DNA of 64,000 bases from Verrucomicrobiia bacterium (lineage in GTDB: Bacteria; Verrucomicrobiota; Verrucomicrobiia; JABWAM01), in contig JADZFN010000020.1 of the NCBI GenBank assembly GCA_020849895.1, positions 18,314-82,313 on the forward strand, given 5' to 3'. Under the pieces are notes generated by a model, which was not told the origin of the DNA, made no database searches, and worked only from the letters and a program-made list of their open reading frames with translations. This document shows, piece after piece, positions 46,811-63,997 of this stretch. Position 1 is the stretch's first letter; every line of letters starts with the position of its first letter. A program made the position numbers and the translations under genes.

Positions 46811-48631
46811 ATGCCGACGCGCTGTCATCGCTTTCGCGTGCTGTTGTTGGCCGCGGCGGGGCTGTTGGTCCTCGCCGCGTTGGGGGTCCGCCTCTACCGG
46901 CTTCAGGTGGTCCACCACGAAGAGCTGAAGCGCTTGGCGGACCGCCAGATTGGCCGCCGCATCCTCCTTCCCGCGCGCCGTGGAACGATCGCCGATTGCA
47001 ACGGCAATGTGCTCGCCCATACCGTCGCCCGCCGTCTCGTGTCGGTCGACCCGAAGGCGATCGCCGAAATCGAGCGGGCGCGGGAAAAGAAGAAGCGGCC
47101 TTCGACGCGCGCCGCGTTCGCACGCATCCTGGCCGATCAGTTGGCCCTCCCATATGCCGAGGTGGAGGAGAAGCTCGCGAGGGATTCGCGTTACGTGGTG
47201 CTTGCGCGCAAGGAACCGGCGGACGCCGTCGAAAGGCTCCAGGCGGCGCTTGCGCCCACGGGACTCCTTGGCGCACTCGGATTCGCCGACGATCCCGAAC
47301 GCCTCTATCCCAACGGTTCGCTCATGAGCCACGTCCTCGGCTATGTGGACGCGGAGCAGCGCGGCGTGAACGGCGTGGAGCGGGTCATGCAGGCGGACCT
47401 TCGCGGCGAGGACGGTTGGCGCGCCGGGGAAACCGACAATCGCGGACGCGAGATCGTCGCGTATCGCAGGGAGGACTTTCCCTCGCGCGACGGCTACACC
47501 GTGGTCCTCGCCCTCGATCAGGCGGTTCAGGACCTTTGCGAGCAGGAGTTGGACCGCGCGGTGGCGGCCTATCGTCCCGACTCGGCCGTGGCCATCGTCA
47601 TGCGCCCCGCCACGGGGGAGATCCTCGCCCTCGCAAGCCGTCCCACCTTCAACCCCAATGATCCCGACAAGCAGGTGGACAGCCTGCGCAACCGGGCCGT
47701 TTCCGATCTGAACGAACCCGGCTCCACGTTCAAGGTGGTGACCGTGGCCGCGGCGCTCGATCAGCGTCTTGTGACCCTCAACGACGTCATCTTCTGCGAG
47801 AACGGGAGGTTCGAATACGCGGGCCGCGAACTCACCGATCATCAAGCCTACGGAAACCTCACCGTGGCCGAAATTCTCGCCCATTCGGTGAACATCGGCG
47901 CCGCGAAGATCGCCCTCAAGCTGGGCAAGGAACGCATGTACGCGGCGATGCGTTGCTTCGGCTTCGGCGAACGGGCGTTTGGGGACCGCCCCACGGAGGC
48001 CTGGCCGGGCGAGGTGCGCGGGATCGTCCATCCTCCCCGCCAGTGGTCGCAGGTCTCCATCACCCGGGTGGCCATGGGGCACGAGGTGGGCGTCACGCCG
48101 ATCCAGACGATCGGCGCCGTGGCGGCTGTGGCGAACGGCGGAAACCTGATGCAACCGCTGATCATCCGCCGTGTGCTCGACGAGAAAGGGGTCGCGGTGC
48201 GCGAATTTTTTCCGAAGGTGCGTCGGCGCGTGATGGACCCCAGAGCCGCGCGGGAGCTCACCGAGGCGTTGAAGCGCGTCGTGAGCCAGGAGGGCACGGC
48301 CGCGAAAGCCGCAATCCCCGGCTTCCAGGTCGCCGGGAAAACGGGCACTGCGCAGAAGCTCGTCAACGGCCGTTACGTGCACGACCGCCACGTCTCTTCT
48401 TTCGTTGGATTTTTTCCCGCGGAGGATCCCGAGATTTGCATTTACGTAATGCTCGACGCCCCGAAGGGCAAGGTGCAGTACGGCGGCAGCGTCGCGGCGC
48501 CCGTCTTTCGTGAAATCGGCCTCCGGGTCGCTTCGTATCTGAACCTGCGCCCGACGGTGCCGGTCCCGGTCGGCGCTCCTCCGGCCGCGGGCGCCTCGCT
48601 GGCCGTTTCTTCGGAAGGAGACGCTCCATGA
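46811..48631 (+). CDS. ftsI: Peptidoglycan D,D-transpeptidase FtsI (class B PBP)
   Basis: PBP dimerisation domain plus transpeptidase with SxxK (…STFKVV…), SxN and KTG(T) (…AGKTGTAQ…) motifs. 606 aa. Confidence 0.9.
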   Translation: MPTRCHRFRVLLLAAAGLLVLAALGVRLYRLQVVHHEELKRLADRQIGRRILLPARRGTIADCNGNVLAHTVARRLVSVDPKAIAEIERAREKKKRPSTRAAFARILADQLALPYAEVEEKLARDSRYVVLARKEPADAVERLQAALAPTGLLGALGFADDPERLYPNGSLMSHVLGYVDAEQRGVNGVERVMQADLRGEDGWRAGETDNRGREIVAYRREDFPSRDGYTVVLALDQAVQDLCEQELDRAVAAYRPDSAVAIVMRPATGEILALASRPTFNPNDPDKQVDSLRNRAVSDLNEPGSTFKVVTVAAALDQRLVTLNDVIFCENGRFEYAGRELTDHQAYGNLTVAEILAHSVNIGAAKIALKLGKERMYAAMRCFGFGERAFGDRPTEAWPGEVRGIVHPPRQWSQVSITRVAMGHEVGVTPIQTIGAVAAVANGGNLMQPLIIRRVLDEKGVAVREFFPKVRRRVMDPRAARELTEALKRVVSQEGTAAKAAIPGFQVAGKTGTAQKLVNGRYVHDRHVSSFVGFFPAEDPEICIYVMLDAPKGKVQYGGSVAAPVFREIGLRVASYLNLRPTVPVPVGAPPAAGASLAVSSEGDAP

Positions 48632-50115
48632 CCTTGCGCGACCTCCTCCGCGTGGTTGCTCCGCTCGAGGCGAGCGGAGATCCTCTCGTCGAGATTTCCG
48701 GCATACGCGGCGATTCGCGCCGGGTGCGCCAAGGCGACATCTTCATCGCCATGCGCGGCGAGGGCGCCGATGGACACGAGTTTATCGCCGACGCCGTTGC
48801 CGCCGGCGCCGCAGCGGTGGTTTACGAGAAGCGGGGCGCCGTTCCCCAAGGCGTGCCCGCCGTCCGCGTGGCGGACGGCCGTCGCGCGCTCGCGCGGCTC
48901 GCCGACGCCTTCCACGGGAACCCCTCTTCGCGCCTCACGATGGTGGGGATCACGGGGACGAACGGAAAGACGACCACCAGCCTGCTCGTCGCTTCGATCC
49001 TGGAAGCCGCAGACCGGCCGACGGGGATCATCGGAACGCTCGCCATCCGGTTCGGGGGCCGGGAGATCCCCGCGGCGAATACGACGCCGCCCGCCGACGA
49101 CCTTCACGAGGCGCTCGCCCGAATGGAACAGGCGGGGATGAAGGCGGTGGCAATGGAGGTGAGTTCCCACGCGCTGCATCAGGGCCGCGTTGAAGGCGTG
49201 GCGTGGGACGCGGCGGTCTTTACGAATTTCACCCAGGACCATCTCGATTACCACCGCACGATGGACGCCTATTTCACGGCGAAGAAGCGCCTTTTTGAAA
49301 AGCTCGGCGCCGGCGGAAAAAAGGGTCTTGCGATCCTGAACGCCGACGATCCCCGCGGCGAAGAAATGCGGCGTGCGGTGCGCGCCGGCGTGCCGGCGCT
49401 CTTTTACGGTGAAAGCGCGGACGCGCAGGTCCGCGCCTCCTGCGTCGAGACGGGCCTTGACGGGAGCCGTTTCACTCTGCGCGCGCCGCAGGGCGAAACT
49501 GAAATTCGGACGCGACTGTTTGGCGCGCACAATACGGCCAATTGCCTTGCCGCCGCCGCCACCGGCCTCGCCCTCGGCGCGGACCTGCCGGCCGTGGCGC
49601 GGGGAATCGCCGCCGTGACGAGCGTTCCGGGGCGTCTCGAACGCGTGGGCGAACGCCCTGCGGTCTTCGTGGACTACGCGCACACCGAGGATGCCCTGCG
49701 CCGCGCGCTGGCCACGCTGCGCCCGTTCGCACGCGGACAGCTCCTCCTCGTCTTCGGTTGCGGCGGGGGGAGAGATCGTGCGAAACGCCGCCTGATGGGC
49801 CGTGCGGCAGCGGAGCTTGCGGACTTCAGTTTCGTGACGAGCGACAACCCGCGTTTCGAGGAGCCCGCAGAGATCGCCGACGAGATCCTCCAAGGCTTCG
49901 GAAAACAGGAAGGCCGCCGCGAAAAAATTCTCGACCGTCGCGCGGCGATCTGCGCCGCGCTCGCGCGGGCGGGTCCGGAGGACGTGGTGCTCGTCGCCGG
50001 CAAAGGACACGAGACATATCAGGAGGCGCGCGGGGTTCGGAACCCCTTCGACGATCGTGCCGTCGTGCGCGAGCTGATCGCCGCGGCGAAGGGAGGAGGG
50101 AACGGCCATGGATGA
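48628..50115 (+). CDS. murE: UDP-N-acetylmuramoyl-L-alanyl-D-glutamate--2,6-diaminopimelate ligase
   Basis: ...GITGTNGKTTTS..., DNPR motif (…TSDNPRFEEP…) indicating meso-DAP specificity. 495 aa. Confidence 0.9.
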   Translation: MTLRDLLRVVAPLEASGDPLVEISGIRGDSRRVRQGDIFIAMRGEGADGHEFIADAVAAGAAAVVYEKRGAVPQGVPAVRVADGRRALARLADAFHGNPSSRLTMVGITGTNGKTTTSLLVASILEAADRPTGIIGTLAIRFGGREIPAANTTPPADDLHEALARMEQAGMKAVAMEVSSHALHQGRVEGVAWDAAVFTNFTQDHLDYHRTMDAYFTAKKRLFEKLGAGGKKGLAILNADDPRGEEMRRAVRAGVPALFYGESADAQVRASCVETGLDGSRFTLRAPQGETEIRTRLFGAHNTANCLAAAATGLALGADLPAVARGIAAVTSVPGRLERVGERPAVFVDYAHTEDALRRALATLRPFARGQLLLVFGCGGGRDRAKRRLMGRAAAELADFSFVTSDNPRFEEPAEIADEILQGFGKQEGRREKILDRRAAICAALARAGPEDVVLVAGKGHETYQEARGVRNPFDDRAVVRELIAAAKGGGNGHG

Positions 50116-51487
50116 AACGCCTCTCCGGGAGCTTGCACGAATGAGCGGCGGAAAGATTCAAGGGTCCGCGACGGTCCGCCGCGTGACCACCGACAGCCGC
50201 GACGCCGGGCCGGGCGACCTCTTCGTCGCCCTGAAGGGCGAACGGTTCGACGGCCATGATTTCGTGGCCCAGGCGCTCGAGCGCGGCGCGTCGGCGGCCA
50301 TGGTTTCGAGGCCGCTGGCCGTGGGCCCGCGCCTGGCGCCGATGATCTTCGTGGACGACACGCTCACGGGCCTTCAGGCGATGGCGCGGGCTTACCGCGG
50401 GGAGCGGCCCGTGAAGACGGTGGCGGTCGCCGGATCGAACGGCAAAACGGGCACCAAGGAACTCGTGGCCGCGGCGCTCGGTGTGAAATACGCGGTGCTC
50501 AAGAACCGCGACAATCTGAACAACCACATCGGCGTGCCGATCAGCCTCTTGCAGCTCGAACGGCGACATCAGCTCGGGGTCTTCGAGGTCGGCACCAACC
50601 ATGCGGGCGAACTGATCCCTCTGCTCCAGATGGTTCGCCCCATGGCGGGCGTGATCACGGTGATCGGAGAGGAGCATCTGGAATTTTTTCGCGATCTCGA
50701 GGGGGTGGCCCGTGAGGAGGGCGCGCTCGCCGAGATCCTTCCGGCGGAGGGATTGCTCGCGTTGAACGCCGACGACCCCTGGAGCCCTTCCATTGCGAGG
50801 CGCTGTCGCGCACGCGTCGTCACCTTCGGGTTCACGCGCGCGGCGGATTATCGCGGCCTTGCCGTCGAGGTTGCCGCGGACGGGGTGCGTTTTAGGGCCG
50901 CCTGCCCTTCGGGAGAGCACGATGTGGCCCTGCGGCTGCTCGGCCGCCATCAGGCTTCCAACGCGCTCGCGGCCCTCGCGATCGCCGATTTCTTTGGAGT
51001 GGATCTCGCCGCCGTCGCGGACGCCTTCGAGACGGTTTCCCCCGCGAAGATGCGCATGGAGCGCAAGGTCACTCCCAACGGCGCGCTGCTGATCAACGAC
51101 GCCTACAACGCGAATCCGTCCTCCGTGCGCGCCGCGTTGTGCGCGGTGGCGGAGATCTCGATCCCCGGCCGGCGTTACGCCGTGCTCGGCGAGATGCGCG
51201 AGCTCGGCGCGGCGGCGGAGGACGGACATCGCTCGGTGGGGCGCGCGGCCGCTGAGAACCACTTCGATTTTCTGCTGCTGGTCGGCGAGGGCGTGGACGC
51301 CGTCGCCGAAGGCGCGCGAGAGGGCGGCGCGCCCCCGCCGCGCATCGAGCGCTGCGCGGGTCCGGCGGAGGCGGCGGCGTTTCTCCGCGCACACGTTGCG
51401 CGCGGCGACGCCGTCTTGATCAAGGCTTCCCGCGGCGTCGCGCTCGAACGCATCGCCACTGAATGGCTCGGCCCGGACGCCAAGTGA
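50108..51487 (+). CDS. murF: UDP-N-acetylmuramoyl-tripeptide--D-alanyl-D-alanine ligase
   Basis: ...VAGSNGKTGTKE... Mur ligase three-domain pattern. 459 aa. Confidence 0.9.
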   Translation: MDETPLRELARMSGGKIQGSATVRRVTTDSRDAGPGDLFVALKGERFDGHDFVAQALERGASAAMVSRPLAVGPRLAPMIFVDDTLTGLQAMARAYRGERPVKTVAVAGSNGKTGTKELVAAALGVKYAVLKNRDNLNNHIGVPISLLQLERRHQLGVFEVGTNHAGELIPLLQMVRPMAGVITVIGEEHLEFFRDLEGVAREEGALAEILPAEGLLALNADDPWSPSIARRCRARVVTFGFTRAADYRGLAVEVAADGVRFRAACPSGEHDVALRLLGRHQASNALAALAIADFFGVDLAAVADAFETVSPAKMRMERKVTPNGALLINDAYNANPSSVRAALCAVAEISIPGRRYAVLGEMRELGAAAEDGHRSVGRAAAENHFDFLLLVGEGVDAVAEGAREGGAPPPRIERCAGPAEAAAFLRAHVARGDAVLIKASRGVALERIATEWLGPDAK

Positions 51488-51585
51488 GCAATGAATACTG
51501 AACAAAGAACACGGCGGATTGCCCGGTCGCCAGCCCTCCCTCTCGCGCAAGCCTTCCGCCCCTAACCTCCCGCTTCCGTTTCACC

Positions 51586-52686
51586 TTGCTCTACTACCTC
51601 CATTTCCTGAGTGCCGAGTGGTCGCCTCTCCGGATTTTCCGGTATATCACGTTTCGCGCGCTGATGGCGGCGATCACCGCGCTCGTCGTTTCGTTGATCC
51701 TCGGCCCGTGGGTGATCCGCCGGCTTTCGGAACTGAAGCTCGGCCAGCCGATCCGCACCGCTGAAGAGGTCCATCGCCTCCACGAACTCCATCGTCTGAA
51801 AAAGGGAGTCCCGACGATGGGCGGCGTGCTCATCCTCCTCTCCGTCATCCTCGGCAGCGCCCTCTGGGCGCGCCTCGACGTCATGTTTGTCTGGGCGACC
51901 CTCGGCGTGATGCTGGGGCTTGGCGCGCTCGGGTTCGCCGACGACTGGCGCAAGGTGGCGCGCAAGGAATCCCAAGGGATCAGCGCGCGCGCCAAGATTG
52001 CATGGCAGATCCTGATCGGACTCGGGATCGCGCTCCTGTTCCTCTGGCATCCCGACACGCGCGAGACGGCGCACAAGCTCATGGTGCCGTTTTACAAGCA
52101 CCCGGTCACCGCGCATCTGGGACTGCTTTTCCCGGCGTTCGCCTGCCTCGTTCTGGTGGGCGCCTCCAACGCGGTGAACCTCACCGACGGCCTCGACGGC
52201 TTGGCCATCGGCTGCACGATCATCGTGGCGCTCGTCTACACGGTCCTCGCCTACCTCTCGTCGAACGCAAAGTTCTGCGCCTATCTCCAGATTCCGCACG
52301 TCCCGGCCGCCGGCGAGCTTTCCGTGGTCTGCGCCGCGCTCGTCGGGGCCTCGATGGGGTTTCTCTGGTACAACTGCGCGCCGGCGCGCGTCTTCATGGG
52401 AGACACCGGTTCGCTGGCCCTCGGAGGGCTCTTGGGGGCGGTGGCGCTCGCTCTGAAGCAGGAGCTTCTCCTTGTGGTCGTGGGAGGCGTTTTCGTGCTC
52501 GAAGCCCTCTCGGTGATCCTTCAGGTCGCCTCTTTCAAGCTCACGGGGCGACGGCTCTTCGCTATGGCGCCGCTCCACCATCATTTCGAACTCAAGGGCT
52601 GGAGCGAGACCACCGTGGTGGTCCGCTTCTGGATCCTCTCGATCCTCTTCGCCCTCGTCGGCCTCAGCTCCCTCAAACTCCGCTGA
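51586..52686 (+). CDS. mraY: Phospho-N-acetylmuramoyl-pentapeptide transferase
   Basis: ...NAVNLTDGLDGLA..., ...FMGDTGSLALGG... 366 aa. Confidence 0.92.
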   Translation: MLYYLHFLSAEWSPLRIFRYITFRALMAAITALVVSLILGPWVIRRLSELKLGQPIRTAEEVHRLHELHRLKKGVPTMGGVLILLSVILGSALWARLDVMFVWATLGVMLGLGALGFADDWRKVARKESQGISARAKIAWQILIGLGIALLFLWHPDTRETAHKLMVPFYKHPVTAHLGLLFPAFACLVLVGASNAVNLTDGLDGLAIGCTIIVALVYTVLAYLSSNAKFCAYLQIPHVPAAGELSVVCAALVGASMGFLWYNCAPARVFMGDTGSLALGGLLGAVALALKQELLLVVVGGVFVLEALSVILQVASFKLTGRRLFAMAPLHHHFELKGWSETTVVVRFWILSILFALVGLSSLKLR

Positions 52687-52758
52687 TCCGAACTCCCCGA
52701 CCCCGCGCCATGCGAAACACCCCATGCACCATTCCCGAATCTTCCCCGGAGGACCGCC

Positions 52759-54129
52759 GTGATCCCGGTCGTCGGTCGCCACTTTCTTGTCGTCGGCTTT
52801 GGATCGAGCGGAGAGGCCGCCGCGCGGCTGCTCGCCCGGAACGGAGCGCAGGTCACCGTCATTGATGAAACCGAGACCGAAACTATGAAACGACGCGCGC
52901 GCAGAAAAAAGAACGCAGGAATCCGCTTCGCCTTGGGAACCGCGACGCCGCCGGCCGGGCCTTTTGCCGCGGCAGTGATGAGTCCGGGCGTGGACCCGCG
53001 GGGCCGCCTCGGCCTCGCCGTGTCGAACCTCGCCGCGCCGCGCTTCGGTGAGATCGAGATGGCTTCCTGGTTCTGCTCGTGCCCGATGGCGGCCCTGACC
53101 GGCACGAATGGGAAAACAACGACGACCGAACTGGCGACGCGCGTCCTCCGCGCGGGGGGGCGTCGCGTTCTCGCGGCGGGCAATATCGGCCTGCCGCTTT
53201 CCGAGGCGGTCCTGCGCAGTTCGGAGCTCGACTGGCTCGTCGTGGAAGCCAGCTCCTTCCAGCTCGAGGGCGTGGATCGTTTCCGTCCGCGCGTGAGCGT
53301 GATGATGAACATCACGCCCGACCACCTCGACCGCTACGCCTCTGTGGAGGACTACGCGCGCGCCAAGGCCGCCCTCTGGCGGAATCAGGGCGAAGGCGAC
53401 GTTTGCGTGGTGAACGGCGACACCGAGGTCGCGCTCGCCCGCCTCGGGTTTCGTCCGCCCGGCCGCGTCCTGCGTTACAGCACGCGCGGGGCGGAGGCCG
53501 ATTTCAGCTTCGACGGGCGCGCGATCCGCGGGCCTGCGGTGGATGGGCTCGATCTGCGCCTGGAGGCCACGCGCCTGCGGGGCGCGCACAACGCCGAGAA
53601 CGCGATGGCGGCGCTCGCCGTCGCCGCCGCCGCGGGCGTGGACCTTCGCGCCGCGTGGGAAGCCATCCGCAGCTATGTGCCGCTCCCGCATCGCCTCGAA
53701 CCCGTGGACGCCGCGGGCGGCGTCGAGTTTGTGAATGACTCCAAAGCGACCAACCTTGACGCCATGGAGAAGGCGGTCGCCGCGTTCGATCGCCCCGTGG
53801 TCCTCATCGCTGGAGGAAAGGACAAGGGCTTCGACTTTGCCGACGCGCTTCCCGCCCTGCGCGGCCGCGTCCGTGCCTGCGTCCTCATCGGCGAGACGCG
53901 CGAGCGCATCCGCGAGCGATGGGGCGCGGAGCTTCCGTGCCACCTCGAGGACACGCTGGAGGCCGCCGTGGTCCGAGCCGCCGCGCTCGCCGCGCCTTCG
54001 GGCGTCGTACTGCTCTCTCCGGGGTGCTCCAGCTTCGACATGTTCGCGAACTACGAACGCCGCGGCGACGCCTTCCGCCGCGCCGTGAAACGTTGGGTCT
54101 CCGCTGCGTGCCGAACCCCTTCCTCTTAA
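52759..54129 (+). CDS. murD: UDP-N-acetylmuramoylalanine--D-glutamate ligase
   Basis: ...VVGFGSSGEAAARLL... N-terminus, ...GTNGKTTTT... 456 aa. Confidence 0.9.
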   Translation: MIPVVGRHFLVVGFGSSGEAAARLLARNGAQVTVIDETETETMKRRARRKKNAGIRFALGTATPPAGPFAAAVMSPGVDPRGRLGLAVSNLAAPRFGEIEMASWFCSCPMAALTGTNGKTTTTELATRVLRAGGRRVLAAGNIGLPLSEAVLRSSELDWLVVEASSFQLEGVDRFRPRVSVMMNITPDHLDRYASVEDYARAKAALWRNQGEGDVCVVNGDTEVALARLGFRPPGRVLRYSTRGAEADFSFDGRAIRGPAVDGLDLRLEATRLRGAHNAENAMAALAVAAAAGVDLRAAWEAIRSYVPLPHRLEPVDAAGGVEFVNDSKATNLDAMEKAVAAFDRPVVLIAGGKDKGFDFADALPALRGRVRACVLIGETRERIRERWGAELPCHLEDTLEAAVVRAAALAAPSGVVLLSPGCSSFDMFANYERRGDAFRRAVKRWVSAACRTPSS

Positions 54130-54156
54130 CCCATTCACCTCCAACCCGAAAACTCC

Positions 54157-55002
54157 ATGCAAACCATCCTCGATATGGAACCCATCGAAACTCCGTCGCC
54201 CAAACGCCCGCGGGGGCGCGCGTGGCGCATCGTCGCCGTCGTGCTGGCCCTGCACGCCGTCGCTCTTGGAGGTTTTGTCGTCTTTCAGGGCTGCCACCGC
54301 GGCGAACCTGCGGAGCGCTCGGAGGAATCCGCCGACGTCGCGGCGCCCGCTGCGCCAGAAAACGTCTTTCCCGCGCCGGTCGCCGCTCCAGCCGAAGGTC
54401 AATCTGCAGCCGTGGCGCAGCCGGGAAGCCTCGCGCTGACGCCGGAAGAACGGATGCCAGGCGAGGTCGCGCCTCCGGCGCCTCCCGAACCAATCGTTTC
54501 CACCGAAGGTGCGCCCGCCGAAGATGCGCCCGCCGCGCCTGCTGCGGCGAAGGCTGTGAAACCGACCGGCGCCGTGACTCACATGGTGAAATCGGGTGAA
54601 ACTCCGGCCCTGATTGCAAAGAAATACGGCATCGCTGCAGACGCCTTGATGCGCGCCAACGGCATCGTTGACGCCACGAAACTCAAGGTCGGTCAGAAGC
54701 TCACGGTTCCCTCCGCGAAACTCAAGGCCTCCGCGCCGACACCCCGGGGAACTGTCGCCTCCAAAGCGGCGGCGAAACCCGCGACGAGAGCGACGCATGT
54801 GGTGAAATCGGGCGAGACGCTGACCTCGATCGCCAAACAGCACGGCGTGTCCGTGGATGCGTTGGTGAAAGCAAACAAAATCACCGACGTGTCGAAGCTC
54901 AAGATCGGGCAAAAGTTGAAACTTCCGTCGGGACGCCCTTCCACCGGCGCGCCGGGCGCCTCGAGCGATTCGCGCCATTCGTTGCGCCGGCTGCCCGCCT
55001 GA
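54157..55002 (+). CDS. Membrane-anchored tandem LysM-domain (peptidoglycan-binding) protein inserted in the dcw cluster
   Basis: N-terminal TM (WRIVAVVLALHAVALGGFVVF), Pro/Ala-rich linker, two LysM repeats (HMVKSGETPALIAKKYGI...VGQKLTVP and HVVKSGETLTSIAKQHGV...IGQKLKLP). Confidence 0.8.
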   Translation: MQTILDMEPIETPSPKRPRGRAWRIVAVVLALHAVALGGFVVFQGCHRGEPAERSEESADVAAPAAPENVFPAPVAAPAEGQSAAVAQPGSLALTPEERMPGEVAPPAPPEPIVSTEGAPAEDAPAAPAAAKAVKPTGAVTHMVKSGETPALIAKKYGIAADALMRANGIVDATKLKVGQKLTVPSAKLKASAPTPRGTVASKAAAKPATRATHVVKSGETLTSIAKQHGVSVDALVKANKITDVSKLKIGQKLKLPSGRPSTGAPGASSDSRHSLRRLPA

Positions 55003-55022
55003 AGCCCGCATCCGCCGAAACC

Positions 55023-56171
55023 ATGAACCGCTACCTTTCCGCCGTGCTGGTTGTCCTGACCCTGGCCCTGACGGGGCTTGGGCTTGTGATGATTTCCAGC
55101 ACGACGGCGACGGTGGCGGCAGGCGGCTCGGCCTCGAAGCTCGTGCGACAGCTCTCCTGGTTGGGGGTGGCGATCGCGGTCTTCGGGATCACGGGCTGGA
55201 TCGACTACAAGGCGTGGCGACCGATGGCGTGGGCGATCTTCGGGATCACCCTCTTCGCGATGCTGATGGTGCACATGCCGGTCCTCGGGATGAAAATCAA
55301 GGGGTCGTCACGCTGGGTGAGACTCGGGCCCGTTCAAGTGCAGCCTTCGGAAATCATGCGCCTCGCCCTGACGATTCTGCTCGCGGACGGTTTGGCGCGT
55401 CACCAGACGCGCATCCGGGAGATGAAATGGGGGCTCGTTTGGCCGCTGGTGGTGCTCGCGCCGGTCGTGGCGCTCCTGTTGAAGGAGCCGGACCTCGGCA
55501 CGGCCGCGCTGGTCCTGGCTTGCACGCTGGCCATGACGTATGTCGCGGGGGCGCGCCTTCTCCCGCTCCTCGGAGTCGGCGTGGCAGGAGCGGCCGGCGT
55601 GGCGACGATGGTGGCGTTGTTGCCGGAACGGCTGGATCGGTTCCAGGCCTGGTGGAACGCGGTCCTCCATCCCGAGTTGCAGCAACACGACGGCAAGTAT
55701 TATCAGATTTGGCAGAGCCTCCTGGCGCTGGGGAACGGAGGCCTCGAAGGGCTCGGCCTCGGCAAGAGTCGTTTCAAGATGCGCCATCTCCCCGAAGCCG
55801 CCACCGATGCGATCCTTCCCATCATCGGTGAAGAGCTCGGCTTTTACGCATCGCTGGCGATCCTCCTCGCCTATGTGACGATCCTGATCTGCGGCATCCT
55901 CATCGCGCGTCGCGCGCGCGAGGTCTACGGGCTTCTGCTCGGCTTCGGACTGGTTTTCGGACTTTGCCTTCAGGCGGCGATCAACGTGGGGACCTTCACC
56001 GGCTGTTTCCCTCCGAAAGGCATGCCGCTTCCGTTCATCAGCTATGGCGGATCCAATTTGGCGCTCTGCTACGCCTCGATCGGATTGCTTGTAAGTATTC
56101 ATCGCCAGTCTCTCCGCGCGCACCGCTTCCGCGCCGGTCTGCCTGCCGATGAGGAGACGCCTCTCATCTGA
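55023..56171 (+). CDS. ftsW: SEDS-family peptidoglycan glycosyltransferase FtsW
   Basis: 10-TM SEDS fold with ...PEAATDAILPIIGEELG... 382 aa. Position between murD/LysM and murG. Confidence 0.88.
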   Translation: MNRYLSAVLVVLTLALTGLGLVMISSTTATVAAGGSASKLVRQLSWLGVAIAVFGITGWIDYKAWRPMAWAIFGITLFAMLMVHMPVLGMKIKGSSRWVRLGPVQVQPSEIMRLALTILLADGLARHQTRIREMKWGLVWPLVVLAPVVALLLKEPDLGTAALVLACTLAMTYVAGARLLPLLGVGVAGAAGVATMVALLPERLDRFQAWWNAVLHPELQQHDGKYYQIWQSLLALGNGGLEGLGLGKSRFKMRHLPEAATDAILPIIGEELGFYASLAILLAYVTILICGILIARRAREVYGLLLGFGLVFGLCLQAAINVGTFTGCFPPKGMPLPFISYGGSNLALCYASIGLLVSIHRQSLRAHRFRAGLPADEETPLI

Positions 56172-56189
56172 CGAGCGGAAAGGCCGATC

Positions 56190-57293
56190 ATGAACGCGAT
56201 CGTGGTTTGCGGAGGCACCGGTGGACATCTCTTTCCCGGCATCGCTCTCGCCGAAGAGCTTCGGGCAAGAAGCCATGACACGATGCTCGTCGTCTCCGAG
56301 AAACGCATTGACCGCGTGGCGGCGGCGGGCGCGCCCGGCTTCCGGATCGAGAGCCTGCCCGGCGTGGCGTGGGCCGGTTGGCGGCCGGACCGCGTGCTGC
56401 GGTTCGCCTTGCGCCTGGCACGCGCACGGAGCACCGCCGGGCGCCGGATGGACGAATTCAGGCCCGGCGTCGTCGTCGGCATGGGAGGCTTCAGCACGCT
56501 GGCGCCGTTGTGGGCCGCGCGGCGGCGCGGGATTCCGACGCTGATCCACGAATCGAACGCGGTGGCCGGCCGGGCGAACCGCCTCCTCTCCTCGTGGGCG
56601 GACCGTTGCGCCGTGGGGATGCTCGAAGCGGAACGCTGGTTCCCGAAGGAGCGCACAGTGTGGACTGGCACGCCGGTGCGCGCGGCGCTCCGCGCGCTGC
56701 CCTCGCGCGCCGAAGCCCGGAAGCGCCTCGGTCTGCCTTTCGATCTTCCGGTCGTGCTCGTCATGGGCGGCAGCCAGGGCGCGCGGGTCCTGAACCGCCT
56801 TGCCGTCGAGGCGGCGGCGCGCCTCGGCCCCGGCCACGCCGCGTGGATCCATCTCGCGGGAGAATTGGACGAAATTCCGATGCGCGAGGCTTACGCAAAG
56901 GCCGGCGTCGCCGCCCGTGTGGAGATGTTCTCCCACGACATGGCGGCGGCCTACGCCGCCGCGGACCTGTTCCTCGGGCGATGCGGCGCCGCCTCGCTCG
57001 CGGAGATTGCGTCGGCGGGCCTCCCCTCCGTGCTTGTGCCTTTTCCCTATGCGGCCGACCGCCACCAGTCCGCGAACGCCGCCGTCTTCAAGCGCGCGGG
57101 CGCCGCCGTTGCGGTCGAGGAAAAAGATTGGACGGGTGAACGCCTTGCCTCCGCGCTCGGCGACCTGTTGACCAACCGCGGGAAGCTCGCGGCGATGGCC
57201 GCCGCCGCGCGCGGCCTGCGTCAGGACGAGGCGCACCGACGCCTCGCGGATGAAGTCGTGGCGCTCGGGACGCGGGGGAGGGACGCGCCATGA
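56190..57293 (+). CDS. murG: UDP-N-acetylglucosamine--N-acetylmuramyl-(pentapeptide) pyrophosphoryl-undecaprenol GlcNAc transferase
   Basis: MNAIVVCGGTGGHLFPGIALAEEL... GT28 N- and C-domains. 367 aa. Confidence 0.9.
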   Translation: MNAIVVCGGTGGHLFPGIALAEELRARSHDTMLVVSEKRIDRVAAAGAPGFRIESLPGVAWAGWRPDRVLRFALRLARARSTAGRRMDEFRPGVVVGMGGFSTLAPLWAARRRGIPTLIHESNAVAGRANRLLSSWADRCAVGMLEAERWFPKERTVWTGTPVRAALRALPSRAEARKRLGLPFDLPVVLVMGGSQGARVLNRLAVEAAARLGPGHAAWIHLAGELDEIPMREAYAKAGVAARVEMFSHDMAAAYAAADLFLGRCGAASLAEIASAGLPSVLVPFPYAADRHQSANAAVFKRAGAAVAVEEKDWTGERLASALGDLLTNRGKLAAMAAAARGLRQDEAHRRLADEVVALGTRGRDAP

Positions 57294-59644
57294 CCGAAAT
57301 CGGCCGAGAGGATCTGAGGCTGTTGCTCGCGAGTGGAGCGCGTTGCGCGCACCTTGTAGGGGTGGCGGGTTCCGGCATGAGCGGTCTTGCGCATCTGCTC
57401 GCACAGCGCGGGCATCGGGTGACGGGCTCCGACATCGGGGAGGAATTCGACGCGGAAGCGCTCCGCCGCGCCGGCATCGTCCGCTATCGCGGCCATTCCG
57501 CGGCTCACGTCGAGAACCCCGACTTCGTTTGCTATTCCTCCGCCATCCCCACGGACAACGATGAATTGGTCGAGGCGCAGCGCCGGGGCATCCCACTCGT
57601 CCGGCGGGCGCGCGCCCTCGCCGCGCTCGTGCCGCCGCAGAAGGCGATGCTGGTCGGTGGCACGCACGGGAAAACGACGACCACCTCGATGATCGCCCAC
57701 ACGCTCGTTCACGCGGGCGTGGATCCCTCGTTTTACGTCGGCGCCTTCGTGCCCGATCTCGGTGGCAGCGCCCGCCATGGAAAAGGGGAAAACTTCGTGA
57801 TCGAGGCCGACGAGAGCGACGGAACGATGAGCGAGTTCGCTCCGCACGACCTGGTTCTCTTGAACGTGGAAGCGGAACACCTGGATTTTTACGCGGACCT
57901 CGCTGCGATCGAGCGGGCCTTCCGGGCCCTCGTGTCGTGCGCGACGGGGCGCGTGATCTATTGCGCGGACGATCCTGTCGCCGCGCGCGTCGCCGCTGCG
58001 GCGCGGGACGCTTCGGCCTGGTCGGCAGCCCCGTCGCTCGCCGCCGGCGCCGAGTGGATCGCCGTGGACGTGCGCCTCGAGGCTTCAGGTTCCCGATTCA
58101 CGCTGCGGCGCGGCGCAGAAACGCTTGGCGAGGTCTGCCTGCGCGTGCCCGGCCGGCACAACGTCTCGAACGCAGTCGGGGCGATCGCCGCCGCCATGGG
58201 CGCCGGCGTCTCCTTCGCGAAGGCGGCGGAAGCCCTGACCTCCTTTTCCGGAGCGCGTCGGCGGTTCGAACGAGTGTTCGAAAGTGCGCGGTTTCGCCTC
58301 GTGGACGATTACGCGCATCACCCGAGTGAGGTGCGTGCCACGTTGCGCGCCGCGCGCCAGGTGCGGCACGGGCGGCTTCTCGCCGTCTTCCAACCTCACC
58401 GCTATTCCCGCACGCGCGCCCTCCACGAGGAGTTCGGCGCCGCGCTCCACGAGGCGGACCGCGTCTTCATCACCGAGGTCTACGCCGCCAGCGAAACCCC
58501 CATCGAGGGCGTGAGCGGAGAGCTCGTGGCGCGCGCGCTCGCCGCACAGCCCGGACGGGACCCGGCGAGCGTGACGTGGGAACCGAACATGTGGCGCCTG
58601 AAAGACCGGCTCGCCGCGGAGCTGCGCGACGGCGATACGGTCCTCGCGATGGGCGCGGGAAACATCCAGGACATGACGCGCCGCCTGGCGTCGGAGCTTC
58701 GCGCGCATAACGAGCTCGCGCAATTGCTCGATCCGGGGGCGGATGTGCGCCTCTGCGAACCGATGGCGAAACGCACTTCGATGCGCGTCGGCGGCCCCGC
58801 ACGGTTGTGGATCGAGCCCGCCGGGGAACGCGATCTCGTGGCCGTGCTGCGGCGCTGTTCCGAAGCCCGTCAGTCGGCCGGCGATGCCCCCGAGGTCCGG
58901 CGGCTCTACGCAGTGACCGTGGTGGGCCGAGGTTCGAACCTCCTCGTGCGCGACGCCGGCATCTCGGGGGTGACGCTCCACTTGGGTCGGGAGGCTTTTC
59001 GCGGTGTGGAGGCTCGGAGGGAGCGCCTCCGCGCGGGCGGCGGCGCGCGCCTCAAGCAGGTCGTCGCCGCGGCACGCGCCGCAGGCCTCGAGGGACTGGA
59101 GTTCCTCGAAGGCATTCCCGGCAGCGTGGGAGGCGCGTTGAGAATGAATGCCGGCGCAATGGGGTCGAGCGTCTTCGAAGTCGTCGAGCGCGTGCGGTTC
59201 GTCACGCTGCACGGCGAGATTGTCGAGCGCGCGCCGGAGGAACTGCATCCCGTCTACCGCCATTGCCCCGGGCTCGACGGTTGTCTCGTATTGTGGGCCG
59301 AGTTTCGCGGAACTCCGGCGCCGGTTGCGAAGATCGATGCGCGTCTGAAGGCCTTCGAGGAGAAACGCCGCGCTTCCCAGCCGGCCGCCGCCTGCGCCGG
59401 ATGCATCTTCAAAAATCCACCCGGCGATTCGGCGGGAAGGCTCATTGACGCATGCGGCCTCAAAGGGCTTGCCTTTGGCGCCGCGCGCGTTTCCGAGGCC
59501 CATGCGAACTTCATCGTGAACGATGGCGGAGCGACCGCTTCCGACATCCTGACGCTGGCCGGCATGGTGCGCGACCGGGTGCGCGCCGCGCGCGGCATCG
59601 AATTGGAGATGGAAGTCGTCGTTCTCGGCGACGAAGGCTGGTGA
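57290..59644 (+). CDS. murC-murB: Fused UDP-N-acetylmuramate--L-alanine ligase (MurC, N-terminal about 470 aa) and UDP-N-acetylenolpyruvoylglucosamine reductase (MurB, C-terminal about 310 aa)
   Basis: N-terminal ...HLVGVAGSGMSGLAHLLAQRGHRVTGSD... , ...GTHGKTTTTSMIA... (MurC). C-terminal ...KRTSMRVGGPARLWIEP..., ...GRGSNLLVRD..., ...RMNAGAMG... (MurB FAD-binding and substrate domains). Single uninterrupted 784-aa frame. Confidence 0.85.
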   Translation: MTEIGREDLRLLLASGARCAHLVGVAGSGMSGLAHLLAQRGHRVTGSDIGEEFDAEALRRAGIVRYRGHSAAHVENPDFVCYSSAIPTDNDELVEAQRRGIPLVRRARALAALVPPQKAMLVGGTHGKTTTTSMIAHTLVHAGVDPSFYVGAFVPDLGGSARHGKGENFVIEADESDGTMSEFAPHDLVLLNVEAEHLDFYADLAAIERAFRALVSCATGRVIYCADDPVAARVAAAARDASAWSAAPSLAAGAEWIAVDVRLEASGSRFTLRRGAETLGEVCLRVPGRHNVSNAVGAIAAAMGAGVSFAKAAEALTSFSGARRRFERVFESARFRLVDDYAHHPSEVRATLRAARQVRHGRLLAVFQPHRYSRTRALHEEFGAALHEADRVFITEVYAASETPIEGVSGELVARALAAQPGRDPASVTWEPNMWRLKDRLAAELRDGDTVLAMGAGNIQDMTRRLASELRAHNELAQLLDPGADVRLCEPMAKRTSMRVGGPARLWIEPAGERDLVAVLRRCSEARQSAGDAPEVRRLYAVTVVGRGSNLLVRDAGISGVTLHLGREAFRGVEARRERLRAGGGARLKQVVAAARAAGLEGLEFLEGIPGSVGGALRMNAGAMGSSVFEVVERVRFVTLHGEIVERAPEELHPVYRHCPGLDGCLVLWAEFRGTPAPVAKIDARLKAFEEKRRASQPAAACAGCIFKNPPGDSAGRLIDACGLKGLAFGAARVSEAHANFIVNDGGATASDILTLAGMVRDRVRAARGIELEMEVVVLGDEGW

Positions 59645-59660: not shown

Positions 59661-60587
59661 ATGAAACGAACCGAGATCCAAGTGGCCGTATTGAAAGGTG
59701 GTTTTTCGAGAGAACGGGCGGTGTCGCTCCGTACGGGGGCCGCCGCCGCCGCGGCCCTGAGGTCGTCCGGCTGTCGAGTCGAGGAAGTGGACGTGCGCCA
59801 CCGGCGCTGGCGGCTCCCTGCGGGAACCGACGTGGTCTTTGTCGCGCTGCACGGCGCTTACGGCGAAGACGGCGAGCTTCAGGACACGCTTGAAAAACGG
59901 GGCCTGCCGTTCACCGGCTCCGACGCCGCGGCTTGCCGACGCGCGTTCGACAAGGCCGCGTCCAAGGCGCGCTTTCGCGAGGCGGGACTTGCGACGCCCG
60001 AAGGCATCGTCCTCCGAGGGCGGGAGAAAGCGCCGAAGGCGGAGGAGCTTCCCTTCAGCCTTCCGGCTGTGGTGAAGCCCGCGCGTGAAGGGTCGAGCCT
60101 TGGCGTGCGGATCGTGCGCGCAGCTTCGGAACTGCCAACGGCAGTCCAGATCGCTCGACGGAGCGACGAGATTGTGCTCGTGGAGCGCTATATTCCGGGA
60201 CGCGAATTCACTGTGGGAGTGCTTGGAGAAAAAGCGCTCCCCGTCATCGAAATCTGTCCCAAGAACGGCTGGTATGACTATCGAAACAAGTACACGGTAG
60301 GGAATACCGAGTATCGGGTTCCCGCTCCGCTGAGATGGAATTTAAGGAAAAAAATCCAAAATTTTGGTCTCCGAGCGCATCAGGTTCTTGGATGTCGAGA
60401 TATATCGAGGGCCGATTTTCGTCTGGACGAGACTGGTGAAATCTATTTATTGGAAGTGAACACGATCCCGGGAATGACGAAAACCAGCCTGCTTCCCAAG
60501 GCAGCCGCCGCCGCCGGCATTGCTTTTCCCAAGCTTTGCCGGACGCTGGTTGAATGCGCGTTGAACCGAGGAAAGATCCTTTCATGA
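59661..60587 (+). CDS. ddl: D-alanine--D-alanine ligase
   Basis: ...VFVALHGAYGEDGELQ..., ATP-grasp, ...EVNTIPGMT... 308 aa. Confidence 0.9.
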   Translation: MKRTEIQVAVLKGGFSRERAVSLRTGAAAAAALRSSGCRVEEVDVRHRRWRLPAGTDVVFVALHGAYGEDGELQDTLEKRGLPFTGSDAAACRRAFDKAASKARFREAGLATPEGIVLRGREKAPKAEELPFSLPAVVKPAREGSSLGVRIVRAASELPTAVQIARRSDEIVLVERYIPGREFTVGVLGEKALPVIEICPKNGWYDYRNKYTVGNTEYRVPAPLRWNLRKKIQNFGLRAHQVLGCRDISRADFRLDETGEIYLLEVNTIPGMTKTSLLPKAAAAAGIAFPKLCRTLVECALNRGKILS

Positions 60588-61489
60588 GTGGGTTGCCCTT
60601 CCAATTTCCCGTGCGCCGCCGGAACCGACCGATCCGGGTCGAGCTTCGTGCCCTCCACGCGACCCGGCGCGCGCGGGTGCGCGCCCAGAAACGCACGCGG
60701 TTTGCGGGTTTCGTGTTGCTTGCGGCGGTCCTGCTCGGCGCGGCAGGCTGGATCGCATGGATCGGCGCGCGGGAATTGGCGCGGCGCGTTCTTGCAGAGA
60801 ATCAGGCTTTCCGGATCCGGGAGATCACCGTCGAGAGCACCGGCGAGCTGCTCAAGCCCGAGTTCGTGGTGGACTACCTGCATCTCCGGCGCGGTCAAAG
60901 TCTGCTTGGCGTGGATATCGCGCGGTTGCGACGCGATCTCGAGCTGTGTTCCGAAGTGGAGCGTGCCGAAGTCGGCCTCGCGCTGCCCGACCGTCTCGCG
61001 ATCCGCATCGCCGAACGGACGCCGGTGGCGAGCCTCGTCGCCGGCGCCACGCGATATCAGGTGGACCGCCGCGGCGTGGTGATGGACCTGTTGAGCAGTC
61101 GCCGTCTCTCGGACGCTCAGAGGAAAGCCATCGAGGAGCTCCCCGTCATCACCGGCGCTGCGGTGGCGGATATGCGGATCCAGTGCCCTGTGATCTCCTC
61201 CGAGATCCATCACGCGCTGGCGCTCTTCCAACGCGTCGATCGTGGCGACCTCGATCCCGGACTCGAAATTCGCTCCGTGGACGTTTCGCGGCGCGGGTTC
61301 CTCGCCGTCACGACGGCGGACGGTTGCCGTACGCGGCTGGCTATTGCTGACCTCGACCAACAACTTCGCCGTTGGTCGGCGGTGCTTCGCGACGCGCGCG
61401 CCCGAACGCTGCGCGTGGCCACCATTGATCTGAGCCTCGGAGGGGACGTGCCCGTGACGTTCGTCGCGGCGCAAACGGAGGCGCCATGA
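60584..61489 (+). CDS. ftsQ: Cell division protein FtsQ (POTRA domain). The ATG at 60584 overlaps the ddl stop (ATGA).
   Basis: Arg-rich cytoplasmic N-term, one TM (FVLLAAVLLGAAGWIAWIG), then POTRA-like ...FRIREITVEST... Position between ddl and ftsA. Confidence 0.7.
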   Translation: MSGLPFQFPVRRRNRPIRVELRALHATRRARVRAQKRTRFAGFVLLAAVLLGAAGWIAWIGARELARRVLAENQAFRIREITVESTGELLKPEFVVDYLHLRRGQSLLGVDIARLRRDLELCSEVERAEVGLALPDRLAIRIAERTPVASLVAGATRYQVDRRGVVMDLLSSRRLSDAQRKAIEELPVITGAAVADMRIQCPVISSEIHHALALFQRVDRGDLDPGLEIRSVDVSRRGFLAVTTADGCRTRLAIADLDQQLRRWSAVLRDARARTLRVATIDLSLGGDVPVTFVAAQTEAP

Positions 61490-62739
61490 GCCTTGTCAAC
61501 GCGATTTTAAAAAGAAACCGATCGGATTTCCTCGTGGGTCTGGACATCGGTACCAGCTCCATCAAGCTGGCGATCGGTGAGACGTGCCCCGACGGCTCGC
61601 TCTCGATGGTCGGCAGCCATGTCGTCGAATCTCAGGGGATCAGCAAGGGTGAGGTGCAAAATCAGGAGCGCGCCTGCGAAGCGATCGCGCGGGCGTTCAC
61701 GGAAACCGAAAACAACCTTGGGATTGGAATCGAGGTCGTCGAGCTCGCCATCACCGGCTCGCACATCGCTTCGGGGACCTATACCGGACATGCGAACGTC
61801 CAGAGCGAAGAAGGAGAGGTCGCCGAAGCGGACGTGCGGGCGGCCATGGACAGCGCGTCGAGTTGCGCGCAACTCGGCGGCGACCGCGCGATGATCCACA
61901 CCATGCGCTGCACGTTCGAACTGGATGGCGGCCCTCCCCTCACGAATCCCGTGGGCCATATCGGCGGCACCCTCAAGGCGGAGGTCCACTGCATCCACGG
62001 TCAGGCGACACGCATCCAGAACCTGAGCCACTGTTTGTGCGAGAAGATCGGCGCGAACGTCGAGATTGGCAATTCGGTCTTCAGCGGGTTCGCGAGCGCT
62101 CTCGCCGTGCTTGAGCCTGAGGATAAGCTCGGCGCCATTGTCATTGATCTCGGAGGCGGCATCACCGAATACGCCGTGTATCTCCGCGGGATGCTCCGTC
62201 AATCGGGAACGCTCGGCGTCGGAGGAGGCCATCTCGTGAACGACTTGATGGTTGGCCTCGGCATCCGTCAGCGCCGAAGGGCGGAGAAGCTGCTCCAAAA
62301 AGCCGGTGGCGTGATGGTGGAGCCCGGCGACCGCGACAAGGAAGTGAGCTTCGCCAGCCAGGAATTTCTTGGAGACCGGGAAAAGGTTTATTATCTCGAG
62401 GACATCCAACGCATCCTTCATGCGCGGATGCACGAGACGCTGCGCATCCTCCGCGATCGCATTTTCGCTCGAAACGCGAACGACCTCAACGGCGCGACCG
62501 TTTTTCTGACCGGCGGTTGCTCCCATCTTAAGGGGATGACGACCCTCGCGCAATCGGTCTTCGACATGCATGCGAAGCAGGGAATCCCCGGCGGTTTCGA
62601 AGGGCAGGAAGAACATCTGCGAAAGCCGGAAATGGCGACCGCCGTCGGCCTCGTCAAATACGCCCATGTCCAGCGGCAATACGAATCGAAGCGGGCCGGG
62701 CCCTGGTGGAACCGCATGTGGAGGGCGGTCTCCGGTTGA
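61486..62739 (+). CDS. ftsA: Cell division protein FtsA
   Basis: Actin-like ATPase: ...VGLDIGTSSIKLAIGE..., ...VIDLGGGITE..., ...TGGCSHLKG... 417 aa. Confidence 0.9.
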   Translation: MSLVNAILKRNRSDFLVGLDIGTSSIKLAIGETCPDGSLSMVGSHVVESQGISKGEVQNQERACEAIARAFTETENNLGIGIEVVELAITGSHIASGTYTGHANVQSEEGEVAEADVRAAMDSASSCAQLGGDRAMIHTMRCTFELDGGPPLTNPVGHIGGTLKAEVHCIHGQATRIQNLSHCLCEKIGANVEIGNSVFSGFASALAVLEPEDKLGAIVIDLGGGITEYAVYLRGMLRQSGTLGVGGGHLVNDLMVGLGIRQRRRAEKLLQKAGGVMVEPGDRDKEVSFASQEFLGDREKVYYLEDIQRILHARMHETLRILRDRIFARNANDLNGATVFLTGGCSHLKGMTTLAQSVFDMHAKQGIPGGFEGQEEHLRKPEMATAVGLVKYAHVQRQYESKRAGPWWNRMWRAVSG

Positions 62740-62746
62740 TTTTGCG

Positions 62747-63997
62747 ATGAAGCCGAAGAATTTTATGGCAGGCGGCGAGGAGGCCTCGCGTCCGGCGTCC
62801 GCCCGTCGCGCACCCTCCGAGAAGCGCGTGCGCATCAAGGTCGTCGGTGTCGGCGGCGCCGGCGTGAACGCCATAGATCGCCTCGTGGAAGACGGCTTCG
62901 ATCAGGTCGGCCTCCTCGCGCTGAACACGGACGCCCAGGCCCTCGCCAACTGCATGGTCGCCGACAAGCTCCAGATCGGCGAACGGATCACTCACGGTCT
63001 CGGCGCCGGAGGCGATCCCGATGTGGGCCGACAGGCCGCCCTCGAGGACGCAGAAGCGATCGCGGACGCCGTTCGCGGCTACGACCTTCTCTTTTTGGCC
63101 GCCGGTCTCGGAGGCGGCACCGGCACCGGCGCCTCGGCGGTCGTCGCCCGGACTGCACGCGACCAGGGTACGCTCGTGCTGGCGCTGGTGACGCTGCCCT
63201 TCTCTCACGAAGGCGCCTACCGCGATCGCGTGGCGCGCGGAGGTCTCCTCGCGCTTCAGGATGCTGCGGACGCGGTGATCTGCATTCCGAACGACAAACT
63301 CTACGACCTCGCCGGAGCGGATGCGAGCGTGCAGCAGGGGTTCGCCCCCACCGATGCCTTCCTGAGCGGCGGTGTACGCAAAATCTGGCGGATGCTCGGG
63401 ACCACCGGATTGATCAACATTGATTTCGCCGATCTGCGCGCCGTGCTCAAACGTCGCGGCGGAGAAACGCTGGTCGGTTTCGGTGACGGCGAAGGGCCCG
63501 ACAAGGTGGAGAAGGCCCTCGAAAGCGCGCTCGCAAGCCCTTTGCTGAACGATTCGGAGACGCTCCAACGCGCCGAATGCGCCTTGGTCGCCGTGACGCA
63601 TGGGTCGGATTTTAAGATGGCCCAATTCCGTGAACTGATGAAGAGGGTCAGCGAGAAGTTCGGGCCGCAGACCGCCTGCAAGCAGGGCCCCATCGTGGAT
63701 GAAAATTTTCAGGACCGGATTTCGCTTCTAATTGTCGCCTCCACCGGCAAATCCGTTCTGCCCGCCTCCGGCCGCGCCGGCGCTCGCGTGGCGGACGGCG
63801 AGATTCAAACCTCGACCCTCAATCCCTCGTCGGTCTCCGTGCCGTTCACGGGGAAGGGCAAGATCCGACAAGGGGTCCTCAATCTCAATGAGGTCTTCCG
63901 TGGGTCCTTCGAGGGCGCGGAACGCACCGTGGTGGACGGCGAGGACCTCGATCTGCCCACGTTCATCCGACGCAAGATCCAGCTCCGGCAAAGGTAG
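62747..63997 (+). CDS. ftsZ: Cell division GTPase FtsZ. Start reassigned to ATG 62747 (MKPKNF...).
   Basis: ...KVVGVGGAGVNAIDRL..., tubulin signature ...AAGLGGGTGTGAS..., C-terminal conserved peptide ...DLDLPTFIRRKIQ. The first 59 codons of the tracked ORF overlap ftsA. Confidence 0.9.
   Translation: MKPKNFMAGGEEASRPASARRAPSEKRVRIKVVGVGGAGVNAIDRLVEDGFDQVGLLALNTDAQALANCMVADKLQIGERITHGLGAGGDPDVGRQAALEDAEAIADAVRGYDLLFLAAGLGGGTGTGASAVVARTARDQGTLVLALVTLPFSHEGAYRDRVARGGLLALQDAADAVICIPNDKLYDLAGADASVQQGFAPTDAFLSGGVRKIWRMLGTTGLINIDFADLRAVLKRRGGETLVGFGDGEGPDKVEKALESALASPLLNDSETLQRAECALVAVTHGSDFKMAQFRELMKRVSEKFGPQTACKQGPIVDENFQDRISLLIVASTGKSVLPASGRAGARVADGEIQTSTLNPSSVSVPFTGKGKIRQGVLNLNEVFRGSFEGAERTVVDGEDLDLPTFIRRKIQLRQR

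Follow-up and report, generated by a model that had tools for sequence, protein, structure and literature searches.

Several fusions between Mur enzymes of peptidoglycan synthesis are known, MurB-MurC among them (PMC6420597). The MurB/C protein of Verrucomicrobium spinosum comprises 770 aa, with MurC in its N-terminal and MurB in its C-terminal part (Naqvi et al. 2016, PMC4803751). This fusion complements temperature-sensitive murB and murC mutants of Escherichia coli, its MurC kinetics were measured in vitro, and the polypeptide is not cleaved; it was reported to be restricted to Verrucomicrobia lineages and to be a molecular signature of the Verrucomicrobiales and Methylacidiphilales (PMC4803751). 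In 2025, murCB was found to be fully essential in V. spinosum by transposon sequencing (PMC12283558). Here we analyzed a fused murC-murB gene (murCB, encoding 'MurB/C') at 57290..59644 on the plus strand of a 64,000-nucleotide stretch (hereafter the window; contig JADZFN010000020.1, positions 18,314 to 82,313) from a Verrucomicrobiia metagenome-assembled genome (MAG). An earlier note on this DNA had drawn attention to the fusion, which was seen correctly and is already known as a published hallmark of the Verrucomicrobia. The gene very probably encodes an uncleaved, bifunctional enzyme of the verrucomicrobial MurB/C family, in which MurC is joined to a type IIb MurB.

The gene is a single open reading frame (ORF) of 784 codons with an ATG start and a TGA stop, and no internal stop interrupts it. 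The product carries three Pfam domains on the MurC side, Mur_ligase (PF01225, residues 21-114), Mur_ligase_M (PF08245, 122-302), and Mur_ligase_C (PF02875, 324-457), followed on the MurB side by FAD_binding_4 (PF01565, 510-646) and MurB_C (PF02873, 682-778). This five-domain layout matches the one given for V. spinosum (PMC4803751, PMC12283558). Both halves are complete, since each matches an NCBIfam equivalog model above its cut-off and over nearly its full length. The MurC module (57350..58687, plus strand) matches TIGR01082 (murC) with 438.8 bits against a cut-off of 335.1, residues 21-466 aligning with model positions 3-448 of 449. The MurB module (residues 484-784; 58739..59641, plus strand), a predicted FAD-dependent UDP-N-acetylenolpyruvoylglucosamine reductase of type IIb, matches NF010480 with 292.5 bits against a cut-off of 259 (residues 484-782, model positions 14-301 of 303) and TIGR00179 with 176.6 bits against 144.5. 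The earlier note's description of one uninterrupted frame, with a complete MurC followed by a complete MurB, therefore holds.

Among 5.8 billion proteins searched, 7807 relatives were retrieved, of which the best 120 were examined and aligned together with the window protein (121 fused sequences). All 120 had the five-domain architecture and lengths of 730-814 aa, with identities of 46-83% apart from one identical MAG protein, and those that carried names were assigned to Verrucomicrobiae, Chthoniobacterales, Spartobacteria, or Verrucomicrobiota. The identical protein is MCC7518195.1 (100% identity; Verrucomicrobiae MAG, 89,820-bp contig). Homologs with 81-83% identity are 783-785 aa long.

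In the translation start region (57277..57293, plus strand), GGAGG at 57277-57281 is followed by an 8-nt spacer and the ATG at 57290, which overlaps the murG stop codon (TGA, 57291-57293) as ATGA, a typical layout for translational coupling. Residues L9, L13, H21, L22, G24, and G27 on the start side are conserved among homologs, and G24, G27, S28, and G29 are invariant, forming a conserved N-terminal glycine-rich loop. The conservation of these N-terminal residues favors the ATG at 57290 over Met30, where the public record MCC7518195.1 starts. That record leaves out the segment encoded by 57290-57379 (residues 1-30) up to its Met30 start and so loses part of the glycine-rich loop; it is also named MurC only, with the MurB half missing from the name.

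The MurC half retains the hallmarks of a Mur ligase. The P-loop GTHGKTT (residues 124-130) is invariant in 121/121 fused proteins, as are the Mur-ligase residues K128, E172, H197, N291, N294, R325, and D340. These correspond to E. coli MurC K130, E174, H199, N293, N296, R327, and D351, in the numbering of Bouhss et al. 1997. The MurC half of an AlphaFold2 (AF2) model superimposes on Haemophilus influenzae MurC (1p3d) with a template modelling (TM) score of 0.92 and a root-mean-square deviation of 1.8 Å. Standalone MurC enzymes (H. influenzae 1P3D, E. coli 2F00, Mycobacterium bovis 7BVA) likewise have the three-domain Mur ligase fold and share 34-40% identity with the window protein, with all invariant residues present and TM scores up to that value. 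However, the C-terminal helix, which ends in the standalone enzymes, runs straight into the MurB module here.

The MurB half belongs with the type II enzymes. Its closest relatives in the PDB are the type II MurBs 3tx1, 1hsk, and 2gqt, and its part of the AF2 model fits Staphylococcus aureus MurB (1hsk) with a TM score of 0.91. The module of ~301 aa aligns over its full length with the type II enzymes 1hsk, 3tx1, 4pyt, and 2gqt, whereas the type I MurBs 1mbt, 2mbr, 3i99, and 4jay align only over its last ~70 residues. Its domain III is of type II, with neither the Tyr loop nor the extra beta-alpha-beta-beta insertion. Type IIa MurBs use Ser as proton donor and type IIb MurBs use Cys (PMC3689657, citing the Thermus caldophilus structure 2GQT); in E. 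coli the general acid is S229 (Benson et al. 1997, as cited in PMC3689657). In the window protein this position, aligned to E. coli Ser229 and S. aureus Ser238, is Cys705 in the motif AGCIFKNP (codon 59402..59404, plus strand), and Cys is present in 121/121 aligned fused proteins. The equivalents of S. aureus MurB Arg188 and Glu308, Arg657 (59258..59260, plus strand) and Glu775 (59612..59614, plus strand), are invariant in the same 121 proteins. When 2gqt (SAGCAFKNPPGQSAGRLID) is aligned against the window protein (CAGCIFKNPPGDSAGRLID), the motif SAGC.FKNP is common to both. T. caldophilus MurB (Kim et al. 2007, as cited in PMC3689657) shares with the window module the type II domain III, the Cys donor in SAGC(A/I)FKNPPG.SAGRLID, and the conserved Arg and Glu partners, but it is a standalone protein of 268 aa, whereas the module here is fused to the MurC C-terminus.

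An exhaustive HMMER search with the MurB half covered 1.84 billion representatives, and the 150 nearest were classified by their donor residue. Cys was found in 49 full fusions, 35 proteins whose ligase part is partial or degenerate, and 31 standalone MurBs, and Ser in 21 standalone MurBs and 3 full fusions. By this classification, Cys is a property of the MurB subclass and not of the fusion. The idea that Cys705 is a new catalytic variant was rejected, given the type IIb Cys described in PMC3689657, the same motif in 2gqt, and the standalone MurBs that carry Cys. Four full MurC-MurB fusions (P0139, P0239, P0246, P0230) were observed with Ser at the proton-donor site. The locus closest to them is from Akkermansia (41-48% identity), and this Akkermansia locus has Cys; as read from these comparisons, the donor residue has switched within the fused clade.

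The earlier note had placed an Ala/Pro-rich linker at about residue 470. This did not survive: the junction, residues 467-483 (RRLASELRAHNELAQLLD; 58688..58738, plus strand), is not Ala/Pro-rich and is modelled as an extension of the final MurC helix that leads through a short turn into the first MurB strand. The spacer between the full-length MurC and MurB models is ~17 residues. In the AF2 model, built from a 47-sequence alignment (mean predicted local distance difference test score, pLDDT, 90.6; predicted TM score, pTM, 0.86), residues 459-477 form one helix, and after a short turn the first MurB strand spans 485-491. Block-mean pLDDT is 85-96 over residues 451-500 and 94-96 at the junction proper; the sole poorly modelled segment is 697-703, the loop immediately before the MurB proton donor. 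The junction has no gaps in the alignment of 121 fused sequences, and the spacing between the MurC 'GAGN' and MurB 'R.GG' motifs is 47-49 residues in most verrucomicrobial orthologs (59 in locus L001). For the V. spinosum enzyme, a linker of ~100 residues had been suggested from Pfam domain boundaries (PMC4803751). That linker is an artefact of these boundaries, the two modules being joined by ~17 residues that are predicted to be structured. G+C content by codon position is ~0.75/0.52/0.82 in each of the two halves as well as in sliding windows over the junction, all in the same frame, and this continuity indicates that no frame switch occurs.

We also scanned one genome per GTDB species and retrieved 80 loci, each of which was checked for a single stop-free frame with both halves. 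The fusion was found in every Verrucomicrobiota locus retrieved, and fused loci carried the labels Verrucomicrobiia, Methylacidiphilales, Terrimicrobiaceae, Luteolibacter, Verrucomicrobiae, Verrucomicrobiales, and Akkermansia, together with a V. spinosum-labelled MAG. The comparison of related dcw (division and cell wall) clusters that the earlier note had called for thus turned up the same fusion. Its suggestion that the fusion may be a lineage marker within the Planctomycetes-Verrucomicrobia-Chlamydiae (PVC) bacteria agrees with this distribution and with the published signature (PMC4803751). Verrucomicrobial loci (L001-L003, L006, L015) also share with the window the order murD-LysM-ftsW-murG-murCB-ddl-ftsQ-ftsA, and both halves of the window protein fall inside the verrucomicrobial fused clade in rough neighbor-joining trees without support values. 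Separate, adjacent murC and murB genes were present in ~33 loci of other phyla, including one from Planctomycetota (L080), and they often overlap or are separated by only a single stop codon (e.g., L007, L018). The earlier note's remark that most bacteria have these two genes side by side in the dcw cluster is therefore right for many lineages but not universal, since ddl directly follows murC in the Planctomycetales loci L028 and L033. In E. coli, murB lies outside the dcw cluster.

Several rearranged forms of these genes were encountered among the relatives. Two Actinomycetota MAGs, from Solirubrobacterales and Acidimicrobiales, carry murC and murB in one uninterrupted frame (L013, 6001-8205; L014, 6001-8349). 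L014 clusters with unfused actinobacterial genes in the neighbor-joining trees, and L007 is arranged in the same way except for one in-frame stop. These two loci are either independent fusions or single-base MAG errors; if they are real, the murC-murB fusion is not strictly exclusive to Verrucomicrobiota. A MurG-MurC-MurB triple fusion of 1155 aa occurs in four related Verrucomicrobiia MAGs (P0123, P0270, P0277, P0280), with the same length in these four independent assemblies, one of them on a 343-kb contig. In the window (56190-59644), murG and murCB are separate with the ATGA overlap, and a small change would join them. The literature consulted mentions MurG/MurC fusions and does not mention this triple fusion. 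In three metagenomic proteins of ~700 aa (P0121, P0130, P0183), MurG domains are joined straight to a type IIb MurB and the MurC part is missing, a pairing that is not among the Mur fusions named in the literature consulted. Finally, many 'long MurB' proteins of ~710-760 aa (P0140, P0146, P0154, P0158, and similar) are MurC-like only in their N-terminal ~200 residues and match the Opitutae-type proteins without detectable MurC noted by Naqvi et al. (PMC4803751).

The assignment of a bifunctional enzyme follows from the intact frame, the complete domains, the conserved catalytic residues, the conserved architecture and synteny, and the structured junction. In the mechanism that we propose, murCB would be translated as one unit inside a canonical dcw operon, its ATG coupled to the murG stop. 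The type IIb MurB module would reduce enolpyruvyl-UDP-N-acetylglucosamine to UDP-N-acetylmuramic acid (UDP-MurNAc) in an FAD- and NADPH-dependent reaction with Cys705 as proton donor, and the MurC module would add L-alanine to UDP-MurNAc at the expense of ATP. The uncleaved polypeptide would in this way catalyze steps two and three of the cytoplasmic pathway to the peptidoglycan precursor. In vivo activity of MurB and MurC, MurC activity in vitro, the lack of cleavage, and essentiality are carried over from the V. spinosum ortholog and may be expected here by analogy; the conserved catalytic residues and the structured junction lend indirect support to the in vivo activities and to the lack of cleavage. 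As for its origin, the fusion probably goes back to an ancestor of these Verrucomicrobiota in which neighboring or overlapping murC and murB lost the stop codon that separated them, as unfused relatives have overlapping genes or a single in-frame stop between them.

A few points weigh against the bifunctional assignment. For the window protein itself, function is predicted from sequence and model. The reductase function rests on the V. spinosum complementation and on conserved residues, and assays of the V. spinosum fusion in vitro failed to reveal any MurB activity (PMC4803751). In addition, the check for extra copies of murB and murC covered the 64-kb window.

Physical coupling of the two steps, as proposed in the earlier note, channelling of UDP-MurNAc, and a fixed 1:1 stoichiometry are benefits of the fusion that we only infer. 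The junction looks rigid in the model, which is suggestive for channelling; however, in the only structurally studied Mur fusion, MurE-MurF of Bordetella, the active sites lie ~35 Å apart (PMC6420597), which speaks against taking channelling for granted. A bolder version would have MurB and MurC held in a fixed geometry that hands UDP-MurNAc over directly, or would make the fusion the core of a larger, obligatory MurG-MurC-MurB assembly. The first idea draws on the motif spacing of 47-49 residues, the confident helix, and the whole-chain pTM of 0.86, and the second on the triple fusion of some Verrucomicrobiia. We regard either form as unlikely, though if true, a fixed-geometry handover would represent a structural mechanism that has yet to be demonstrated in a Mur fusion.

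Two separate enzymes might still be made from the fused gene, by cleavage at the junction or by internal initiation of MurB, for example at Met493, which lies near the start of the MurB module. Cleavage was considered by Naqvi et al. since the Pfam boundaries suggested a ~100-residue linker, but the window protein has a spacer of ~17 residues that AF2 models confidently as helix and turn, with no disordered linker. Moreover, many orthologs have Leu in place of Met493 (EPLAKHTT, EPLSKHTT), which means that an internal start lacks conservation, and the production of two enzymes is very unlikely.

A degenerate MurB half, or one acting as a regulatory pseudo-enzyme, with the real reductase encoded elsewhere, is likewise highly improbable. 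The undetected in vitro activity would fit such a loss, as would the replacement of the canonical catalytic Ser by Cys, and the 'long MurB' relatives, whose ligase part is degenerate, are examples of decay in one half of such a fusion (also PMC4803751). However, Cys defines a functional type IIb class with a solved structure (2GQT, PMC3689657) and is also present in 31 standalone MurBs of the 150 nearest representatives. Both Arg657 and Glu775 are invariant, and the NF010480 score exceeds the equivalog cut-off. The V. spinosum gene complements an E. coli murB temperature-sensitive mutant (PMC4803751) and the whole gene is essential (PMC12283558). No second murB or murC was found within the 64-kb window, where only weak cross-matches to murE and murF appeared. 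A separate proposal, that oxidation of the Cys caused the undetected in vitro MurB activity of Naqvi et al., is weakened by the 0.5-1 mM dithiothreitol in their buffers for purification and assay.

That a lost stop or a frameshift in sequencing or assembly has joined two truly separate, adjacent genes, as one base error could do in a MAG given that murC and murB of other phyla are adjacent and sometimes one in-frame stop apart (L007), is effectively refuted by a conserved junction without gaps in all 121 fused proteins, which stem from many independent assemblies (including contigs of 0.7-4 Mb; identities down to 46%), by codon-position G+C that is continuous through the junction, and by the cloning and expression of the fusion from V. 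spinosum DNA (PMC4803751). Neither codon periodicity nor this alignment thus gives any sign of the frameshift near ~58700 for which the earlier note had asked the assembly to be checked.

The bifunctional murCB gene is part of a complete dcw cluster that runs from mraW to ftsZ on the plus strand of the window. By Pfam, the genes upstream of murCB are mraW (45502-46428), ftsI (46811-48631), murE (48628-50115), murF (50108-51487), mraY (51586-52686), murD (52759-54129), a LysM protein gene (54157-55002), ftsW (55023-56171), and murG (56190-57293); those downstream are ddl (59661-60587), ftsQ (60554-61489), ftsA (61486-62739), and an ftsZ ORF (62570-63997). The LysM protein, encoded between murD and ftsW, has 281 aa, two LysM domains, and a Pro/Ala-rich N-terminal region; the same insertion occurs in L001, L002, L003, and L015 and was noted in PMC4803751. 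G+C content falls to 0.55-0.57 over 60000-60750, which takes in the 3' portion of ddl and its overlap with ftsQ, compared with 0.65-0.73 in the surrounding dcw genes, and G+C at third codon positions (GC3) is 0.65 in ddl compared with ~0.8 in its neighbors. The ftsZ ORF has 87 residues ahead of the Tubulin/FtsZ GTPase domain and a 170-nt overlap with the end of ftsA, and the true start is probably further downstream than listed; the ORF stops 3 nt short of the window edge. Two long antisense ORFs opposite the cluster, 51562-55011 (1149 aa) and 55308-57596 (762 aa) on the minus strand, are without the GC3 periodicity of real genes and are a by-product of high G+C, not genes. The only RNA gene in the window detected by ARAGORN and Rfam is a tRNA-Ala (GGC) at 31760-31835.

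The window gene is one more uncultured member of a characterized, essential signature fusion family and by itself adds little. Of modest value are the recognition that MCC7518195.1 starts at Met30, without part of the glycine-rich loop, and is named for MurC only, the corrected linker length, and the assignment of the MurB half to the Cys-using type IIb class, a point that the original V. spinosum paper does not discuss. The MurC-MurB family is a reasonable target for structural biology, because no structure of such a fusion has been solved: a PDB structure search found no chain that spans both halves, and MurE-MurF (8f5d) is the one Mur fusion with a solved structure.

Among other known fusions, the chlamydial MurC-Ddl protein (NF011171; McCoy & Maurelli 2005, as cited in PMC4803751) is also a PVC fusion with MurC in the N-terminal position, but its C-terminal partner is Ddl and not MurB. 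Membership of the window protein in that family was rejected, as it scores 275.7 bits against the NF011171 cut-off of 1015 with an alignment confined to the MurC part (model positions 5-444 of 809), and Ddl is encoded here by a gene of its own (59661-60587). MurE-MurF of Bordetella pertussis (PMC6420597; PDB 8F5D) resembles the window protein in that two consecutive cytoplasmic Mur enzymes are fused and encoded in the dcw cluster. However, both parts of MurE-MurF are ligases with paralogous folds, and that protein has been described as flexible and elongated in shape, its active sites being ~35 Å apart, whereas the window protein links a ligase and a flavoenzyme through a short junction that is predicted to be rigid.

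MurB/C of V. spinosum DSM 4136 comes from the same phylum as the window protein and has the same domain order (770 vs 784 aa). The window protein shares 49% identity with a V. spinosum-labelled ortholog and is collinear with it over 773 residues, and the arrangement ftsW-murG-murCB-ddl-ftsQ with the LysM gene is the layout reported for most Verrucomicrobiales and Methylacidiphilales (PMC4803751). The two differ in that the window represents an uncultured Verrucomicrobiae MAG lineage with ~48-49% identity to genome representatives, in that the V. spinosum DSM 4136 gene lies outside the dcw cluster whereas the window gene lies inside it, and in the junction, described as a '~100-residue linker' in V. 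spinosum and predicted here to be ~17 helical residues. At the level of sequence, the window gene has every defining feature of the verrucomicrobial MurC-MurB family.

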